Made by a program: the position numbers and the translations under genes
NCBI GenBank assembly: GCA_010093705.1
Contig: MU006089.1
Location: 3,436,061-3,500,060 of the forward strand
Length of the DNA stretch: 64,000 nt
From: Patellaria atrata CBS 101060
Lineage: Eukaryota
Direction: 5' to 3'
In this document: positions 1 through 59,923 of the stretch, piece by piece
Layout: each line of letters opens with the position of its first letter
Numbering within the stretch: position 1 is the first letter of the stretch
Notes under the pieces: generated by a model
The model's input: only the letters and a program-made list of their open reading frames with translations
Told to the model about the DNA's origin: nothing
Databases searched by the model: none

Positions 1-784
1 GATATGTTGGTCACACGAAGTGAGTACCACTCGTTGGGAAGTCATGTTCGGGATTAGAAACTAATTTCTCCAGATCTCACACCTGGAGAATCCGTATACG
101 GTGAAAAGCGCATCAGTGTCCAGACTACAATTCCAGATTCCGTCAATGGAGAGGTTGCTCCCGCTACCTCAGTCGAATACAGAGTCTGGAATCCGTTCCG
201 CAGCAAGCTTGCGGCTGGTATTCTTGGAGGTTTGGAGGATATCTATATGAAGCCTGGTAGCAAAGTTCTATATCTCGGTGCTGCTTCTGGCACCTCTGTT
301 TCGCACGTTGCGGACATTGTGGGCCCCACCGGAACGGTCTTCGCCGTAGAATTCAGTCACCGATCAGGACGAGACTTGGTCAACATGGCTACACACCGTA
401 CTAACGTCATCCCAATTGTTGAGGATGCCCGTCATCCGATGAAGTACAGAATGCTTGTCTCCATGGTTGACTGTATCTTCGCAGACGTTGCTCAACCGGA
501 TCAAGCCCGTATCGTTGGATTGAATGCGCACCTGTTTCTCAAAGTTGGAGGAGGTGTTTTGGTTTCTATCAAGGCTAACTGCATTGATTCCACAGCAGAA
601 CCGGCAACGGTCTTCGCGAGAGAAGTTGAAAAGCTCCGAGAAGAGAGAATCAAGCCCAAGGTACAGTTGACACTAGGTAAGAACGATAATCGATGCTTTT
701 AGGTCCATAACTAACCACAAATCTACAGAACCATTCGAAAGAGATCACGCCATGGTTGCGGGCATCTATCAACGCCATGCTTAG
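1..784 (+). CDS. NOP1: Fibrillarin / rRNA 2'-O-methyltransferase, 3' part (gene starts before the window)
   Basis: Motifs [56 protein letters not shown] and [10 protein letters not shown]. Introns 20-73 and 677-728 restore the frame; TAG at 782-784. Confidence 0.97.
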
Positions 785-1083: not shown

Positions 1084-2670
1084 CTACCAGTAACCCCGAT
1101 GTTCTTGTTCAAGGTGGCCCGAACGACTTCCGCTATCGCGACGCGAACGCACAATAGCCGTCGTTGAATCAGGAGAATGAGAACGGTTCAAACTGCTCGT
1201 AGACTCTCTCCTCGGGTTATATGTTGAATGATGATTAGGGTAGTTCCAGAATTCCTCCATAAGCGACTGCTCGGGTGGCTCCATAGACCGTCTCCTCGAA
1301 TCACGAGTCGAATGACGGGGTGAAGTCTCCATAAGTTCCGAACTGAAATGTTGGGTCGATGAGTGAATCGAGGTGGGCGTCGAATCTCGGTTTGAGCGTT
1401 CGTCGGAAGGATGGGTCGGGGTTCGAGTGCTATTTCTTGTCGACTGTCTATCTCTACGACTGGACGAATCGCGGCTCGAAGTAGCGATCCCTACTTGAAG
1501 AATCCTCCAACCGGAGCCAGTCCCTCTACTACGACGAAGTGCTATAAGGACTCTCAGACTAGAGTATGTCTCTATGCTAAAAAGTGACAGGGGCCCTTCA
1601 AAGGACTGATCATCAGACTCGCGAACTTGCGATGTATCAGAAGACGTCTCACTACCCTGAAAAGGCCAACGTAGTTCTACAGGAGGCCTCTCTTGTAGAT
1701 GTAAATATGGTTCAGCGGTATTGCCGGTACCACTATAAACTGTACCAGTTGAAGAAGCGTCGGAAATGTCGGAATCCCTGCGCTGCGCCAGACACAAAAT
1801 GTAGGGGGGAACCATTTCTTCGATAGAAACAGCAGATCTCACATAGTCAGGAGGCGAGAAACTACCATTCGAAGAAATAGACGGAGCCCGTGGAATTCTA
1901 GGTCTATCTTGAGGAGGAGTTCTCGAGAAATTAACATTCGAATGAGGAGACGGAGACAGGGGAGCTCTAGGACGATATGAACGAGGTGTTCCCGGGAGAC
2001 CACCATTCGAATGGGGGAACGGAGATCGTGGTGGTTCAGAACCATCACGACGAGAAGGTCCCACAACCGGAGCTCGAGTGGCGACTGTATGTGCAGAAAG
2101 ATTAATGGGAAAGGGACCTCCCTCGTAACTCGTCATTGGGAAATCGAAACGAGGAGTGGTGATAGAAGAGCGGCTCTCACGATGGCGTCGGGACCTCCCA
2201 AGAGAAAGCACACGGGCAATATTCCTACCGACTGTAGCCAGGGAGTTACGCCTGGATCCATTGTAAAAATATCGAGAAGTGAGACTACGCCTCAGCGTCG
2301 GACGACTCAAGTAAGCATCTGGGCCGCTGGGTGAAGATGGCGCTGATCTGCCGGGACGAATGGGACCAGTAAAATTGAGATCCCTGGAATCCCACACCAG
2401 GTCGGCGTGACACTCAGGACAATAATCGTAGTATTGAATATAGGGGATGTAGCAGTCCCTGTGCCAACCACATAAGCAGTCGGATTCTCCCGCGGCTCTA
2501 TAGATTTGACCTCGGGATGTAAAGCTCACGAAGCAGTCTACGCAGTGGGCGGGGCGTGACCTCACATAATCCCAGGAATGCATCGGCGAAGAATTTTCCA
2601 TGAGATCGATCAGAACATTGACGTTGGTCTCTCGTGGAGAGATCGCGCGTGGAGACCGTGAAGAAGACAT
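1084..2670 (-). CDS. Intronless 528-aa protein with an N-terminal RING-like zinc finger and a long Ser/Arg/Pro-rich disordered tail
   Basis: Long ORF. CVDC-x19-CLCGWHRDC-x10-CPEC has RING-type ligand spacing. Confidence 0.6.
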   Translation of the reverse strand: MSSSRSPRAISPRETNVNVLIDLMENSSPMHSWDYVRSRPAHCVDCFVSFTSRGQIYRAAGESDCLCGWHRDCYIPYIQYYDYCPECHADLVWDSRDLNFTGPIRPGRSAPSSPSGPDAYLSRPTLRRSLTSRYFYNGSRRNSLATVGRNIARVLSLGRSRRHRESRSSITTPRFDFPMTSYEGGPFPINLSAHTVATRAPVVGPSRRDGSEPPRSPFPHSNGGLPGTPRSYRPRAPLSPSPHSNVNFSRTPPQDRPRIPRAPSISSNGSFSPPDYVRSAVSIEEMVPPYILCLAQRRDSDISDASSTGTVYSGTGNTAEPYLHLQERPPVELRWPFQGSETSSDTSQVRESDDQSFEGPLSLFSIETYSSLRVLIALRRSRGTGSGWRILQVGIATSSRDSSSRRDRQSTRNSTRTPTHPSDERSNRDSTPTSIHSSTQHFSSELMETSPRHSTRDSRRRSMEPPEQSLMEEFWNYPNHHSTYNPRRESTSSLNRSHSPDSTTAIVRSRRDSGSRSGHLEQEHRGYW

Positions 2671-40822: not shown

Positions 40823-41995
40823 TCAACGGCGGGCTGCTGGTTCGTCACGTTGGTAACTCATATCGGATACAATGCTCATATCATCGTTATTCTCGCCCCT
40901 TAAAGGTGTATCGGGACCTGATATTACTGAAATATCATCGTCATCTCTCGGATCAGCGAAGGGGCCCCTCGTGTCGTCCCTCGGATCGGCAAATGGGGAG
41001 ACTAAACGTCCATCATCCTCACGGTGCTCAGGCAGCAGTTGTATTTGGCTCGCTTGCGCATTGGTAGGCTGTTGCACCCTTAGGCTCCGACCCCGGTATA
41101 TTGGTGGTGCGGGACTGGTGGGAGGGATATATGGCGGTGGTGGATCGACATGCTCAGCATCTAACGCATACACAGGTTCGGAATTGGTCTGTGATCTTGG
41201 TGGAGTATCAGAAGTGCTGACACCTGTGTAATAGGTAGGATTCGTTGTTGATACCACAGAGGTGAGGGCCGCCGGTCGCCGAGATGATGGAAGAGACGGA
41301 TATTGCGTGAGAGACGGTAGTGGTGGTTGAAGACCCTCTGACATATTTGACTGTGTCCGAAGTAGGCTATTGCTCGACGAAACAGCCATCTGTGGTCTGG
41401 ACGTCCGCTTTGTCTCTCGTCTTCGCAGTAGGAATACACCACCAAATACTAACAGTGCTAAAAACAGTAGAGGTCCAACAACTGCCCCGGCAATCTGACC
41501 ACCTGACATTCCATTTGAGCTGGAAGATGGAGCAGAGGTAGAAGATACGGTTGCGAGTTGTGTGTCCTCACCACCAGTAGCAGTAGCGGGGCGGGATACA
41601 ACTCGAGTTACAGCAGCACCAGATGTAGATGTCGCGAAGGTCGAATGCTGTTTAAATGAAATACTGGTGTCCGAAGTTGAAGTGGATACGGGTCGTACGT
41701 GTATCAAACCTTCACTTGCCTTAGGGTCGAATGGAAGAGGTGTTACAGACGCATAGTAACCTCCATCCTCATCGTAGATCTCGGTATACGAAGGAATCTC
41801 AAAGGGATCCGTGTAGGAAGGAGGCTCGATTATCAAGGTGTAATATGAGTACTCGGGGTTGATAGGATCCTCTATGTATTCCCAAATGCCGCCATACTCG
41901 TCTTCATAGTAAACGACATATTCGTATTCGTCTGATGGATATTCATGATCGCGCTTTCCAAACAACTCCTCTGGCTTTTTTTTGACAACCCGCAT
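40823..41995 (-). CDS. Mid2-like single-pass membrane protein with a Tyr/acidic N-terminal segment; true 5' end uncertain
   Basis: Ser/Thr stalk, TM MSGGQIAGAVVGPLLFLALLVFGGVFLL-RRR, cytoplasmic PPPPY and a duplicated PFADPRDD motif. Confidence 0.75.
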   Translation of the reverse strand: MRVVKKKPEELFGKRDHEYPSDEYEYVVYYEDEYGGIWEYIEDPINPEYSYYTLIIEPPSYTDPFEIPSYTEIYDEDGGYYASVTPLPFDPKASEGLIHVRPVSTSTSDTSISFKQHSTFATSTSGAAVTRVVSRPATATGGEDTQLATVSSTSAPSSSSNGMSGGQIAGAVVGPLLFLALLVFGGVFLLRRRETKRTSRPQMAVSSSNSLLRTQSNMSEGLQPPLPSLTQYPSLPSSRRPAALTSVVSTTNPTYYTGVSTSDTPPRSQTNSEPVYALDAEHVDPPPPYIPPTSPAPPIYRGRSLRVQQPTNAQASQIQLLPEHREDDGRLVSPFADPRDDTRGPFADPRDDDDISVISGPDTPLRGENNDDMSIVSDMSYQRDEPAARR

Positions 41996-55938: not shown

Positions 55939-58900
55939 CTAAAAAGCAAACCTTGTCCTGATATCTTGCACCTTCCTCTCCACCTCACGAACCGTCCTAT
56001 CCATCTCCGCTGCAACCCTCTCCTTCGTTCCACGATCTAATACGAGAAACCGTTCGCACAGATCACCATCAATGACGCCCTTAACTGGTACATAATACGA
56101 ACGGTATGCCAGATGATCCCTCCCCGCGAGCGGCGCATCGTCAGCCCTCAGATGCATCTCGAGCGATTGGAAGAAATCGACATCTTCGCGACTGAGGAAG
56201 GGAACTAGTACGCCGATTGTGCCCTGGATTCCGGCCCAGATGATGACGTCTTTGCCACCAGCTACCAAGGGCGCCTTTTGGAGCGCAACCGGGACATCCT
56301 GGACGTAGAAGTGAATCATGAGATCTAGTCTGTTCGGAGTACCGTTCAGATAGCCTTTCTCGTGAAGCAGATGGAGACCACCACCTTCTTCATCTGAGGA
56401 CTCGGAAACAGCCTGTGGACATCTGACAAGCCAGAGGTTTCCGAACTTGTCGCCGCCTGCTGTGGTTTGGTAATCTACCATAGTAGTGCATGTGGTATGC
56501 CGAGATACGACATCGTCCACGAAGGGAATGAGACGGGTTTCCTGGTGTTTGTAGACGACATAAGTCACGCTTTCACGTACGTCAGAGCACACGATCCGCG
56601 ACCCCTGGGTCTGCAGTCCAACCAGAAGAGATGGAACAACACTGGCTTTGGCTTTCCGGAGTAGCTGTTTCAGACCGAGATCGAAGATGTGCAGTTCCTT
56701 TCCTAATCCTACAAGTAAACGCCCCTGAAACCCAAGCAAGGCGAGAGGCGGTTGATCCATCTTAGTCTTATGGATCAATTCGAGTTCTTTCCCATTTTCA
56801 AGGAAGCGATAAATGTGAATGAAGCCACATGTGGAACTGAGAGGGGCACCTGGCTGCAGAACCATATCCTTTCCGGTACCAACGACAAGGAAACGCTCAT
56901 CATCCTGACTGGCAAATGGGGCGATTGAAATGCTGACAGCTGCTTCGTTTTCTGCAAGCTCGACTGTATACAAGACTTCCTTTTCTGAAACGGGATCCAC
57001 AACCTGGATACAAGAAGACCAGTGCTTCTCGCCCTTGGGGTAGCCAAAATCTTCCGGTGGTAATACCGCGGCATCACCATTGACGACGCTTGGGTCATTC
57101 TGTAGTTGTTCTCGGAGATGTGGTGGTAACACGTTATTCTCCGTTTCTATAACGTAGAACAAAGAGTAGTCTTGATGTAGTACAAATTTTCGAGGGGTAT
57201 ATCTGAGAGTAACTGATTCTGAAAGTAGATTTTCGGCTAAATCATCAATTGTAAAGATTCTAATATCGTATATGGTTAGTTCTGAGTTTTCTTTACTAAT
57301 ATCATAAGAAAATGAGATGGGAGTGTGCATCAGAAGGAACAATTGGAATTATGTTGTCTCCTCATTGTCCGAAGACATTGGTTTTCAACAACGAAAAAAT
57401 CATCATGCGAAAATAACCAGAACAAAGTAGGAGAGAAACATACCGTAGATTCTTGCCCTGAATACCAACTATACCCTCAGGACATTGCTCGTTAGTAAAG
57501 TTCCATCCCCATTCAAGGCCGCCATAATTTAGTGGAGTCAGTGTGAAAGCCTGGGTCTGGGAATCAGAATACCCTAACCATGCACGTGTACTCAAAGCTA
57601 GGATAGACGGTCGTTCCTTGACCATAACCCGGAACAGTTTGGCAGGTTTAGCACCCAAGAAGCGGGTACGAGTATCTGAAAGATCGCCAGTCACTTCATC
57701 TATAACTGTACGGAGATAAACACCAGAAAATAAGCCGATATGAAGATATAAAGAGGAACCGCCGGAAGAGGAATCCGGCATCGCCATAATATTGAGTGCT
57801 GAGGGCGGCGATGTCAAGGCCTGGACGGACTTACTTTCCAAACAAGTGTCGGGAGCTACACTCATTATACGGACAGTGGAATCATCGCACCCAACAGCCA
57901 AGAAGTTGGTTCGAAGACGGCCTGGGGGAAGCTCTCCTAGACTCAAAGCCGTGACGCCGCCGCTCATTTGCCGCTTCTCGTCGTATTCCGCTAGTGTGTT
58001 ATCAGAATCTGCTTCGAAATATACAAGTTCACCCGAACTGAGCGCAATAGCAACTTGTCGTTGATTTGAGGTAGCTGCAACGATACTACGGTGTTGAGGA
58101 GAAGGCCACTCCTTGATCTCGCCATTTGCTAAAATCTGTCGGATGCCCTTCGGGTATACTTGGATGAGCGTATCTTCACCAAATTGTTGGACAGCTAGAG
58201 TTGGCGTTGATGTTAGAAACCCCGTATCAGATGCTTCTTCAACTGTCTCTCCTACACTCAGGACTAATGTACCAGTTGCGAAAGACAGGATAATATATGC
58301 ATCGGAAGTGTCGTTAGCAGTGCGCTTGATCGTCCATACTGCCGTTGGTTTAGCCGGGAGTTCAGATTCCACGATTTCTGAAACTTCAAGTCCATGGCGT
58401 AGCGTCTTCAAGGCTCCATGCGCGCCAGTGCCAGACAATGTATAGATCTGGTTGGCATCGTCGTTAGTAAGATTTGCGACCTTGCAGTCTGTGATCGGAT
58501 TCATACAAGGAATGCCGACGGAACGGGACATGTTTTCTAGCGGACGCGGATGGAAATAAGGAGCCTCATAAGGAGCTGTGGTGTCTGCTGGATAATCATC
58601 GCTGGTGAAGACCATTTCGTTATCGTCATCCCCTAACTTTTCGAACTGGTAGAAATATTGATCTCCATTTTCGGTAGCGACGTAGAGAAAACCGCTCTTC
58701 AGGATACACAGGTTCGTTGCAGGGGGTACTGTATCAAAGTATTTGATGTTGAGTCTCTCCACCTCTCCAGTCTTATTGTCATTGTCATCCGAAGCAAGCT
58801 CAAGAGTGACCTTGAATATATCACCATCTTCAGATTGAAGGAGGAAAAAAAATGCGCCTGCGCCACGCATCTTGTGCATAACACCGCAGATGATGTATCG

Positions 58901-59923
58901 CCTTCGAGACGGATCCTCTGTGGCACCTCTTCTCCGTGGTATTGGTACTCTAAATGCGTCTTGATTTGAGTGTCTGTAGGTGATACTCTCCTGACCACAT
59001 ACTAGTACTCCACTTGGTCCATCAGTGCCACCCGGGACTTGGAAGAGCAAGTTGGCTGTTCGATCCACAGCATCGCTCCATTTCCGTACTACATGATTTA
59101 ATCCGAGATCTAATTCGTAATAGACAAGCTGCTTTTCAATATCTCGATAAGCTTGACCAGTGTAATCTTGGTCAGATTCAGTGTAGTCTACTTCGAGGGC
59201 TGCCCATGCTGGATTTTCATAGCCGGTATCTAAGGCGGCTAATGCGAATACAAGAGCACCAGGTTTATGCGCCTCCAGTGGCGAGGATATGCGCACCTCC
59301 TTCTGACCATCCCTGTTTAGCACATAGACCAGTTTGTTCTTCTCGACGGAAGCGAGCATACAGGCTCTCCCTTTTGGATCCGATGCAAGGTATTCTCCTG
59401 GTATAACTCGACGAACTCCAGATTTGCCGTATGTTTCCATACCTATTCTGTTCAACTTGAGCTTTTCGGGGTCGTACTCGAGAAGTGCTATCCGTCCGGA
59501 GTCGGATGAGACTATGATAAAGTCTATTTTCTATCAGCACAGATTCATGAAATTTCCATAATCAGTTCCCAATTTCCACTAGGGGATGCAGCGGGAGTAA
59601 CAGGCGGAACGTCGTGCTGTCGGACATGCTTCATGAATCACTAAATGAAACTATAATACATTGCGCGGTTTGAACATACCTTTGGTGCTACCAGCAATCC
59701 TAAACGGAGATATGGACCTGATGATACCGAATACATTGTGTGTTAAGATGGTGGTAATTTTCCCGCTCGAAGGGTCGAGTCGAAATAGTTTTAGTATCGA
59801 GCCAGTCGCAGAAAGAAGCTGCTGTTCCTTCGTCCCAGCAAACTGACCAAGAATAGTTATTGTAGAAGATGAAGGAGGTTGCAGCGTCAACGAGTACATA
59901 AACATATTAGACGTCGTCGCCAT
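55939..59923 (-). CDS. RSE1: Pre-mRNA splicing factor Rse1 (SF3B3/SAP130)
   Basis: [69 protein letters not shown]; introns 59524-59679 and 57260-57443. Confidence 0.97.
57326..57410 (-). ncRNA. Intronic box C/D snoRNA (snR41/U62-type 18S guide) in RSE1 intron 2
   Basis: Box C ATGATGA (57406-57400), box D CTGA (57333-57330), short GCA/TGC terminal stem, C'-like ATGAGGA, and a 13-nt guide TCCAATTGTTCCT antisense to the conserved 18S AGGAACAAUUGGA. Confidence 0.85.

Follow-up and report, generated by a model that had tools for sequence, protein, structure and literature searches.

The window analysed here, a stretch of 64,000 nucleotides from contig MU006089.1 of Patellaria atrata CBS 101060, carries on its minus strand the gene for RSE1/SF3B3, and a spliceosomal intron of this gene encodes a box C/D snoRNA (Table 1). 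When the two exons are joined, the 20-residue translation of the junction is identical to public protein P0121, and both exons that flank the intron contain RSE1/DDB1/CPSF1 Pfam domains. The host protein as a whole is a 100% match to a Patellaria atrata protein and its next relative is 74% identical. The stretch is also present in two sequencing runs, in DNA contigs of one sample that are near-identical to the window and are possibly its source, and neither joints nor differences were seen there; no RNA run is listed with it.

The bases to which an earlier note on this DNA had drawn attention belong to this intron-encoded box C/D snoRNA and comprise its D'-side guide slot together with its degenerate D' box. 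Box C lies near the 5' end of the RNA and box D near the 3' end, and the two are flanked by GCA and UGC, a short terminal stem from which the ends of the snoRNA are predicted. Of the internal boxes, C' (AUGAGGA) is good and D' (CCAA) has two of the four consensus letters. At the gathering thresholds of Rfam no family matched anywhere in the window, and no rDNA was detected in it; at E values up to 10 the snoRNA locus gave only weak matches to unrelated C/D families, namely snoZ13_snr52 (18.9 bits) and Afu_300 (17.6 bits).

Table 1. Positions in the window of the host intron and of the parts of the snoRNA that it encodes.
Feature	Position	Strand	Remarks
Host RSE1/SF3B3 spliceosomal intron	57260..57443	minus	GUAUGU donor, UAG acceptor
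Branch site ACUAAC of the host intron	57280-57275	minus	read from sequence
Box C/D snoRNA, ~84 nt (predicted ends)	about 57326-57409	minus	boxes and guides read from sequence
Box C, AUGAUGA	57400..57406	minus	read from sequence
Slot on the box C side of D', UUUUUUCGUUGUUGAAAA, 18 nt	57399-57382	minus	read from sequence
Antisense element UUCGUUGUUGAAA, 13 nt	57383..57395	minus	complementary to fungal 5.8S nt 4-16, by rRNA comparison
Degenerate box in D' position, CCAA	57378..57381	minus	read from sequence; consensus CUGA
D'-C' hairpin, UGUCUUCGGACA	57366..57377	minus	read from sequence
Box C', AUGAGGA	57359..57365	minus	read from sequence
Spacer after box C', GACAACAUAAUU	57347..57358	minus	contains GACAAC
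D guide, CCAAUUGUUCCUU	57334..57346	minus	antisense to 18S ...GAGGAACAAUUGG
Box D, CUGA	57330..57333	minus	read from sequence

The D guide, which is 13 nt long, pairs with ...GGAACAAUUGG in the 18S of three contaminant fungal rDNA contigs (L139, L153 and L134), and its fifth nucleotide from box D is opposite the 18S A that is equivalent to yeast A541 and to N. crassa A538. The counterparts of this Patellaria-type snoRNA are CD13 in N. crassa, snR41-I in S. pombe, the A541 half of snR41 in yeast, and U62 in human. The equivalence of CD13 (EU780937), S. pombe snR41-I, the A541 half of S. cerevisiae snR41, plant snR41Y and human U62A/B is given in PMC2780460, where 18S-Am538 is the predicted target of the D guide of CD13. 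The Patellaria RNA has in common with CD13 the core of the D guide together with box D (CCAAUUGUUCCUU CUGA), the intronic location, and the order of its parts, that is, box C, slot, CCxA, a CUUCGG-type hairpin, an AUGAGG C' box and the D guide. The D'-C' hairpin, however, is UGCCUUCGGGUG in CD13 and UGUCUUCGGACA at the equivalent place in Patellaria, and the slot that follows box C is UAAAAGGGAUU in CD13, where it pairs with 18S AAUCCCUU, and UUUUUUCGUUGUUGAAAA in Patellaria. In S. cerevisiae snR41 the A541 guide is at D' and a guide to G1126 is at D, whereas the Patellaria snoRNA has its A541-type guide at D and lacks the G1126 guide. The published core of the 18S-G1126 guide (AAGTTTCAGCCTTG / AAGUUUCAGCCUUG) has no match in the window with up to two mismatches allowed, which bears out the earlier note where it held that the slot is unlike this guide of yeast snR41. 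The snoRNA is not a double-guide snR41 of the S. cerevisiae type.

The same three contigs, annotated with Rfam, served as the rRNA reference for the slot, so that the rRNA pairings described here are with rRNA of other fungi. The element UUCGUUGUUGAAA pairs with TTTCAACAACGGA, nucleotides 4-16 of the Rfam-delimited 5.8S, over 13 contiguous base pairs, of which 12 are Watson-Crick and one is G-U, with a predicted energy of -16.5 kcal/mol. Complementarity to the start of 5.8S is therefore present on the minus strand as the earlier note had described; its extent had been given as 11 nt plus a G-U, and one A-U pair is to be added to that count. At 13 bp the uninterrupted match to the 5.8S of these other fungi has the length of a guide (at least 10-12 bp). 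It is the single best match of the slot across 18S, ITS1, 5.8S, ITS2 and 25S, and the runner-up is 10 bp long with two G-U pairs. AACTTTCAACAACGGATCTC is exact in 35 of 51 rDNA-bearing contigs that were retrieved by a degenerate primer pattern, and the target sequence is the same in the yeast 5.8S that the earlier note quoted.

The element occupies the D' guide position, as had been proposed, and the duplex ends one nucleotide before the D'-position box, so that its placement accords with the fifth-nucleotide rule. The fifth nucleotide upstream of CCAA is G 57386, which is opposite the C that follows UUU in 5.8S. This C is number 7 in the Rfam-delimited 5.8S and would be C8 with one more A at the 5.8S start, as in the sequence quoted previously. 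Provided that CCAA is the D' box, the predicted geometry would put a 2'-O-methyl on this C, which agrees with the site around C8 suggested in the earlier note. A near-copy of the element, TTCGTTGTTGATA, is found at 41241-41253 on the plus strand; it has no box C/D context and was treated as a chance occurrence rather than as a second element.

Orthologues were collected among metagenome loci by a search for a pattern of box C plus D guide, and 117 loci with 91 unique sequences were listed. In 88 of the 117 the flanks are RSE1 exons that end and start at identical residues, and the intron is the same one. The loci that could be classified are nearest to Leotiomycete, Lecanoromycete and Eurotiomycete proteins. 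Among the matches listed there is no Dothideomycete-like locus with more than 75% host-protein identity, and the nearest relative has about 74-75%. A host-protein tree of 38 rows, made with a quick method after exclusion of two duplicates and of rows without hits of at least 300 aa on both exons, puts the window in no starred clade, on a branch that is long (0.43), and does not identify a sister group.

Across the loci listed, the D guide and the position of the intron are fixed, the recurrence of the D guide being built in by the search pattern that required it, and the slot varies both between and within classes. Among the matches listed, three unrelated slot sequences occur among loci nearest to Eurotiomycete proteins and at least five occur among Lecanoromycete-like loci, and the D'-side slot is, by this comparison, evolutionarily labile. 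In the orthologues the D'-position box, read by eye, is CCGA, CCUA, CUUA, CCCA or CCAA. The 11-mer of the 5.8S element is present in none of the 117 loci listed, and in the 91 unique slots the pairing with the start of 5.8S extends to 9 bp at most. Free variation of the element beside a conserved D guide had been named in advance as the mark of a chance match, and at the sampled depth this is the pattern that was found. Absence from the orthologues is not proof of chance, however, because D' guides are often lineage-specific and because host-protein identity to the nearest relative sampled is no higher than about 74-75%.

In the relatives the slot appears usually to carry a short accessory antisense to the 18S sequence just 5' of the D-guide target, a point that is missing from the earlier note. 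At least 7 Watson-Crick base pairs with the 50-nt stretch of 18S immediately before this target can be formed by 28 of the 91 unique orthologous slots listed, compared with an average of 3.7 such orthologues and a maximum of 14 for control windows. The element UCGUUAA, which faces 18S UUAACGA, is conserved in the snR41 of Saccharomycotina too: Y. lipolytica, which has lost the G1126 guide, retains it, and snoRNAs that have the G1126 guide only do not contain it. In the header of the snR41 alignment in PMC3116282 no targets are marked besides those of the S541 and S1126 guides, and we infer that UCGUUAA in snR41 is an extra base-pairing element. The homologous slots of the 28 orthologues are similar to the extra base-pairing of van Nues et al. 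2011 (PMC3116282) in that they pair beside the snoRNA's own methylation site, whereas the strong partner of the Patellaria slot is in a different rRNA. For specialists in snoRNAs there is comparative value in having a single snoRNA in a single RSE1 intron across at least 88 loci, and in the repeated recruitment of its D'-side slot to pair with 18S close to the D target.

The longest Watson-Crick run of the Patellaria slot with the same 50 nt of 18S is 5 nt. With G-U pairs allowed, the slot forms 7 bp with an 18S sequence of the UAACGAG type at -6.0 to -7.1 kcal/mol, and the UCGUUAA elements of Leotiomycetes pair with 18S at -6.8 to -7.7 kcal/mol. The 18S stretch CTTTAACGA, which is the partner of the Leotiomycete UUUUUUAUCGUUAAAA-type element, resembles the start of 5.8S, CTTTCAACAACGGA. 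In an alignment made by eye, the Patellaria slot can be read as an altered copy of the UUUUUUAUCGUUAAAA-type element, and since the 18S and 5.8S stretches are similar, a small insertion could create the 5.8S match without selection.

Taken tentatively, the most likely reading of the slot is that it is a lineage-specific D' guide to 5.8S, and such a guide is plausible. The slot would have been rebuilt in the Patellaria lineage into a young, lineage-restricted guide, and a snoRNP formed on C' (AUGAGGA) and D' (CCAA) would keep the start of 5.8S, still free in pre-rRNA, within the 13-bp duplex. The C opposite G 57386 would then have its 2'-OH methylated by Fibrillarin/Nop1, and the methyl group might be useful or merely tolerated. 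In humans, 5.8S-Um14, whose guide is SNORD71, is a box C/D-placed methyl within the first 20 nt of 5.8S; it lies about six positions further 3' than the predicted Patellaria C, and it belongs to another snoRNA family and to the animal lineage. A precedent is N. crassa CD29, which has a D' guide of 14 bp to 5.8S-Am42; primer extension confirmed the methylation, and the guide is missing from the cognates in other filamentous fungi (PMC2780460). Like CD29, the Patellaria RNA is a box C/D snoRNA with a lineage-specific complementarity to 5.8S on its D' side, but CD29 is of another family and its target is A42, which is also methylated in plants according to a cross-species table, rather than the 5' end of 5.8S.

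Several observations favor a D' guide. Besides being the unique best match across the full rDNA unit and ending one nucleotide from the D'-position box, the duplex is of a length that is seldom reached by chance. When 3000 mononucleotide shuffles of the 18-nt slot were compared with 5.4 kb of mature rRNA, 14 of them reached at least 13 bp with no more than one G-U, and 10 (~0.3%) also ended sufficiently near to D'. Of the 91 unique orthologous slots listed, two have 13-bp matches to mature rRNA. One (L059) carries the antisense ...CACCAAGAUCU, as in the D' guide of N. crassa CD50/U24 (26S-Cm1418), and so has a U24-type 25S guide in the equivalent slot; the other (L067) pairs over 13 bp with 18S 503-515, near the D target. 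Both look functional, and the longest rRNA matches in control slots were 12 bp (one case) for 91 reversed and 11 bp for 91 shuffled sequences. The C' box and the D'-C' hairpin are intact and are common to CD13.

The main points against a D' guide are that the element recurs in none of the loci listed, the best slot-5.8S duplex among the 91 unique slots being 9 bp, that the slot may derive from the UUUUUUAUCGUUAAAA-type 18S element by a small insertion, without selection, and that CCAA, besides having only half of the consensus letters, is without the G of GA. One of the two sheared pairs of a kink-turn normally depends on that G. Divergent C'/D' motifs, even those that are not naturally beside a guide (snR50, snR55 and snR57), nevertheless directed methylation in an artificial snoRNA, and in the available text of that study the motif of snR39 is the only one tested that failed (PMC3116282). 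None of the fungal literature examined lists a methyl close to the start of 5.8S. No report of it was found in open-access literature, the available text on N. crassa predicts a single 5.8S methyl, Am42 (PMC2780460), and the 5.8S entries of the cross-species methylation table are only Am42/46/47/48 and Gm75/78/79/80. If the methylation is real, the extreme 5' end of fungal 5.8S would bear a ribose methyl that appears neither in that table nor in the available part of the N. crassa paper (PMC2780460). It would also be an example of a spare guide slot that was re-aimed, possibly by a change of few bases, from an 18S accessory site to a similar site in 5.8S.

It is nearly as credible that the complementarity to 5.8S is a by-product of chance. 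The sole job of the snoRNA would then be the methylation of the 18S A541 equivalent, and the match to 5.8S would have come about by drift or a small insertion and have no selected role. The slot would be weakly constrained and quick to change, either a decayed accessory 18S-pairing element or the vestige of a lost second guide, and any pairing or methylation would be incidental. This account fits the variable slot beside a fixed D guide and intron position, the absence of the element from all 117 loci listed, the degenerate D' box, and the likeness of the 18S accessory target to the 5.8S start. Real slots, moreover, are no richer in long rRNA matches than the controls up to 11 bp, a length found in 4 real, 6 reversed and 4 shuffled slots. 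One slot group has a perfect 11-bp match to the ITS1 of an unrelated fungus, which indicates that matches of that kind arise by chance. A paper on the fungal snoRNAome warns that target predictions from single sequences are not convincing (PMC5824354). Chance is harder to reconcile with the rarity of a correctly placed 13-bp match in shuffled slots and with the functional appearance of the family's two other 13-bp cases. Nor is the Patellaria slot simply the conserved element, since its Watson-Crick complementarity to the 18S accessory window has been lost. If the match is due to chance, it is a caution that 13 bp in the right position are insufficient without conservation.

That the slot has a partner other than 5.8S is improbable. 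The candidates are a residual pairing with the 18S accessory site, an internal helix with GACAAC, and a non-rRNA target such as an snRNA, tRNA or mRNA; C/D guides to snRNAs and tRNAs are predicted in N. crassa (PMC2780460). The 7-bp pairing with 18S is near in energy to that of the Leotiomycete elements, and GUUGUU of the antisense element can form 6 bp with GACAAC of the spacer at -6.3 kcal/mol (z = -1.57). These pairings are, however, far weaker than the duplex with 5.8S. The internal helix is not seen in the orthologues, and with a mean z of -0.03 over 86 of the orthologues listed it was rejected as a general explanation.

Pairing without methylation is slightly more improbable still; in this case the snoRNP would dock at the start of 5.8S within pre-rRNA and serve as a chaperone of folding or processing where ITS1 meets 5.8S. 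The duplex spans 5.8S nucleotides 4-16, near the place where mature 5.8S begins, and a degenerate D' box might allow proteins to bind but be poor in catalysis. The complementarity stops short of the nucleotide 5' of UUU, however, and if the element were essential to processing, conservation within a class at least would be expected. The conserved pairing with LSU pre-rRNA that marks a U8-like processing snoRNA has no counterpart here, the element being absent from all 117 loci listed. U8 pairs with 28S rather than 5.8S. A role of this kind has been proposed for vertebrate U8, a box C/D snoRNA that, according to a review, is needed for 5.8S/28S maturation and does not act as a methylation guide; the same review asks how yeast copes without U8. 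Unlike the intronic Patellaria snoRNA, U8 is independently transcribed, vertebrate-specific and essential. Since most of the C'/D' motifs tested were catalytically active once they were given a guide (PMC3116282), pairing between the slot and 5.8S is more likely to lead to methylation. Nothing in the analysis supports the chaperone role at the ITS1/5.8S junction that the earlier note had offered as an alternative.

Least probable of all is that the slot is a newly evolved tether and no methylation guide, holding the 5' end of 5.8S while the snoRNP is engaged on helix 18 of 18S; it would link the folding of the small and large subunits in the early pre-ribosome, influence the formation of the 5.8S 5' end and be a fungal analogue of vertebrate U8. 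Contact of one RNA with both subunit precursors, which had been put forward as noteworthy, is not unusual in itself, as several N. crassa C/D snoRNAs have one 18S and one 26S target (PMC2780460) and the L059 orthologue has its 25S guide in the same slot.

The snoRNA lies in a minus-strand intron flanked by exons encoding the beta-propeller and CPSF_A domains of an RSE1/DDB1/CPSF1 protein. Joined, these exons give exactly the residues of the public Patellaria atrata CBS 101060 protein (P0121, pre-mRNA-splicing factor rse1) across the junction, and the upstream exon matches that protein at 100% identity. The P0121 model (window 55939-59530, minus strand) has 1105 aa, compared with approximately 1209-1212 aa in relatives, and about 100 residues may be absent at one end. 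As read from the sequence, the intron holds a box C/D snoRNA, roughly 84 nt long, in which the D'-guide region between box C and the degenerate CCAA is here called the slot. No Rfam family was matched in the window at the gathering score, and below it the matches at the snoRNA were only weak.

Features of the RSE1 intron and its snoRNA (window positions), followed by slot elements of orthologues that pair with 18S rRNA (positions in the 18S numbering of rDNA contig L153)
Feature	Position	Strand	Sequence or remark
Host intron, RSE1/SF3B3	57443-57260	-	GUAUGU donor, ACUAAC branch site, UAG acceptor
Box C	57406-57400	-	AUGAUGA
Slot, 18 nt	57399-57382	-	UUUUUUCGUUGUUGAAAA
Degenerate D'-position box	57381-57378	-	CCAA
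Hairpin	57377-57366	-	UGUCUUCGGACA
Box C'	57365-57359	-	AUGAGGA
Spacer	57358-57347	-	GACAACAUAAUU
D guide	57346-57334	-	CCAAUUGUUCCUU
Box D	57333-57330	-	CUGA
UCGUUAA	18S 529-535		opposite TTAACGA; 17 sequences, all Leotiomycete-like ones included
AAGGGAU type			opposite ATCCCTT / TTAAATCCCTT of 18S; 4 sequences; AAGGGAUU in N. crassa CD13
UGUACUC			opposite GAGTACA of 18S; 4 sequences
Longer element, locus L067	18S 503-512		10 Watson-Crick nt; 13 bp including one G-U against the 18S of rDNA contig L139

The D guide pairs with ...GAGGAACAATTGG in all three 18S sequences compared (rDNA contigs L139, L153 and L134), with the target A at the fifth position. In N. crassa, CD13 is an intronic snoRNA with a D guide to 18S-Am538, which its source equates with S. 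pombe snR41-I, yeast snR41, plant snR41Y and human U62A/B (PMC2780460). CD13 shares with the window snoRNA the D guide, box D, AUGAGG C' box and CUUCGG-type hairpin, but has CCUA where the window has CCAA (PMC2780460). The window snoRNA is a genuine snoRNA of a known family. The yeast G1126 guide was not found in the window, and the earlier note was right that the slot does not match this second snR41 target in 18S; in N. crassa the function is assigned to a separate snoRNA, CD9 (PMC2780460).

Since the window contains no rRNA, fungal rDNA units contaminating bacterial assemblies served as reference, and three were annotated with Rfam (L139, complete; L153 and L134, with partial 25S). In all three 5.8S begins with AACTTTCAACAACGGATCTC, and exactly the same start was present in 35 of the 51 rDNA contigs that a degenerate pattern recovered, which come from fungi other than P. 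atrata itself. The slot can pair with these units over 13 uninterrupted positions, UUCGUUGUUGAAA with TTTCAACAACGGA (12 Watson-Crick pairs and a single G-U; predicted energy -16.5 kcal/mol). In this duplex the fifth nucleotide upstream of CCAA lies opposite the C after UUU in 5.8S, and the match as originally described from the sequence holds. Elsewhere in the 18S, spacers, 5.8S and 25S of the reference units, no other slot match exceeded 10 bp with two G-U pairs. Among 3000 shuffles of the slot compared with 5.4 kb of mature rRNA, 14 reached 13 bp with no more than one G-U, 10 of these also ending near the D' position, and 202 reached 11 bp. A one-mismatch copy of the 13-nt element (TTCGTTGTTGATA, window 41241-41253, plus strand) has no box C/D motifs around it and is probably due to chance.

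Orthologues were sought in metagenomes as box C, a 40-70 nt gap, the D guide and box D, which gave at least 117 loci. The 117 listed (91 unique snoRNA sequences) include Leotiomycete-, Lecanoromycete- and Eurotiomycete-like loci with 90-100% identity to named species, as well as far more distant ones. In 88 of them the flanks encode RSE1, interrupted at the same residues as the window's exons, with host proteins approximately 37% to 75% identical to the window's; the snoRNA therefore keeps one intron position over a broad spread of fungi, and the association is very old. None of the 117 has a host protein above about 75% identity, the best relative among 5.8 billion proteins reaches 74%, and in a quick tree the window protein stands alone on a long branch. 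The slots are highly diverse, within single classes too. CGTTGTTGAAA occurs in none of the 117 listed loci, and the longest duplex that any of the 91 slots forms with nt 1-30 of 5.8S has 9 bp, so that conservation, proposed as a check in the earlier note, is absent from the orthologous introns compared. The antisense match to 5.8S in this spare slot is well formed and, among the sequences compared, restricted to one species.

Our tentative preference, at a little under even probability, is for a predicted lineage-specific guide for 5.8S methylation. It is supported by the length, uniqueness and geometry of the duplex, by the intact C' box and hairpin, by the family's record of re-aiming the slot and by the precedent of N. 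crassa CD29, and is weakened by the lack of conservation in the sequences compared, the poor D' box, the lack of a known methyl at the site and a plausible neutral route to the sequence.

Matches of 13 bp to mature rRNA occur in two of the 91 slots listed (loci L059 and L067), compared with maxima of 12 bp (one case) in 91 reversed and 11 bp in 91 shuffled slots, so the slot can hold true guides. The L059 slot (locus at 1501-1573, plus strand; ...AUCACCAAGAUCU followed by CCGA) pairs over 13 bp with 25S, using the antisense that N. crassa CD50 (the homologue of U24, for 26S-Cm1418) carries in its D' guide, and in this lineage a single snoRNA would combine U62-type and U24-type guides; the L067 slot pairs with 18S near the D target. 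One orthologue, L059, would then already join 18S and 25S targets, and dual targeting is common in the N. crassa table (PMC2780460), which takes away the special character earlier given to contact with both subunits. Matches of 11 bp do not separate real from control slots (4 real, 6 reversed, 4 shuffled), and one perfect match of this length, to ITS1 of an unrelated fungus, is plainly chance. In a Lecanora-like lineage (L014, L051) the slot AGUGGUAUUUC, which precedes CCUA, is perfectly complementary over 11 nt to positions 2554-2564 of the L139 25S (numbered with its intron removed). It may represent a further acquired D' guide; a length of 11 bp falls within the chance range.

The window CCAA lacks the G of GA, which forms one sheared pair of the kink-turn, and the listed orthologues have CCGA, CCUA, CUUA, CCCA or CCAA at this place. 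According to van Nues et al. (PMC3116282), divergent C'/D' motifs directed methylation about as well as the consensus, as did motifs not naturally beside a guide (snR50, snR55, snR57), and only that of snR39 failed; the degeneracy of CCAA is therefore weak evidence against activity. The D' guide of CD29 pairs over 14 bp to direct 5.8S-Am42, which primer extension verified, and the corresponding snoRNAs of other filamentous fungi lack this guide (PMC2780460). CD29 is a direct precedent for a functional 5.8S guide that is not conserved. We found no report in the open-access literature of a methyl at the predicted position. Human 5.8S carries Um14. A cross-species table has only Am42/46/47/48 and Gm75/78/79/80 in 5.8S, none of them in its yeast column, and U8 is described as vertebrate-specific and required for 5.8S/28S maturation. 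The guide is an ordinary kind of prediction.

Orthologous slots are non-random with respect to 18S. At least 7 Watson-Crick nt complementary to the 50 nt directly 5' of the D-guide target are present in 28 of 91, compared with a mean of 3.7 orthologues (maximum 14) in 80 control windows of the same rRNAs, and with a second rDNA the figure is 24 of 91 (control mean 3.7, maximum 18). These counts are not independent, because the sequences are mutually related, and the variety of solutions (see table) is the stronger argument. Such pairing fits extra base-pairing as described by van Nues et al. (PMC3116282), where conserved snoRNA stretches complementary to rRNA adjoining a methylation site can increase methylation by as much as five-fold and sometimes share 1-2 nt with the guide duplex. 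The supplementary snR41 alignment for Saccharomycotina has (U)AUCGUUAA immediately 5' of the G1126 guide; Yarrowia keeps it though its G1126 guide is gone, and the G1126-only snoRNAs of Schizosaccharomyces, Pyrenophora and Aspergillus are without it (PMC3116282). UAUCGUUAA is common to Saccharomycotina snR41, 5' of the G1126 guide, and to Leotiomycete RSE1-intron snoRNAs, within the first 20 nt after box C (L007, L010, L013, L033, L062, L071, L076, L103 and others), the two arrangements being circularly permuted relative to one another. The motif is complementary to UUAACGA of 18S, next to the A541 guide duplex, and appears to be extra base-pairing that had gone unmarked; that the snR41 element may serve the A541 guide is proposed here, not by van Nues et al. 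A further motif, ...CUAUGCUCUU..., recurs in Lecanoromycete-like and other loci (L009, L022, L027, L030, L056, L072, L077, L089, L108, L116), with no rRNA match reaching 9 bp apart from an imperfect fit to GGAAUGAGUA of 18S, on the upstream side of the D target.

That the 5.8S match is a chance by-product is only slightly less probable than that it is a guide. The match is stronger than chance would typically give. Aligned by eye, the window slot resembles UUUUUUAUCGUUAAAA of L033 with AU lost and GUUG gained, and the main difference between the 18S partner CTTTAACGA and the 5.8S start CTTTCAACAACGGA is an inserted CAAC. Insertion of a few nucleotides could therefore carry the slot from one partner to the other, and the chance expectation is higher than the shuffles indicate, to an extent that is not computable; the ancestral state, with no close relative, is a guess. 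That the slot serves other partners is unlikely. With G-U pairs it still has 7 bp to the 18S stretch (predicted -6.0 to -7.1 kcal/mol, similar to the -6.8 to -7.7 kcal/mol of the Leotiomycete elements), and its longest Watson-Crick run there is 5 nt. About equally unlikely is pairing with 5.8S without methylation, which the poor D' box would suit and the activity of divergent motifs argues against. The functional reading of the 5.8S element in the earlier note is possible.

The fungal rDNA units used here (L118-L168) lie inside assemblies labelled as bacteria (Streptomyces, Virgibacillus and several MAGs), and are contamination. In one of them, L139 (8621-8963), the 25S gene is interrupted by a group I intron.
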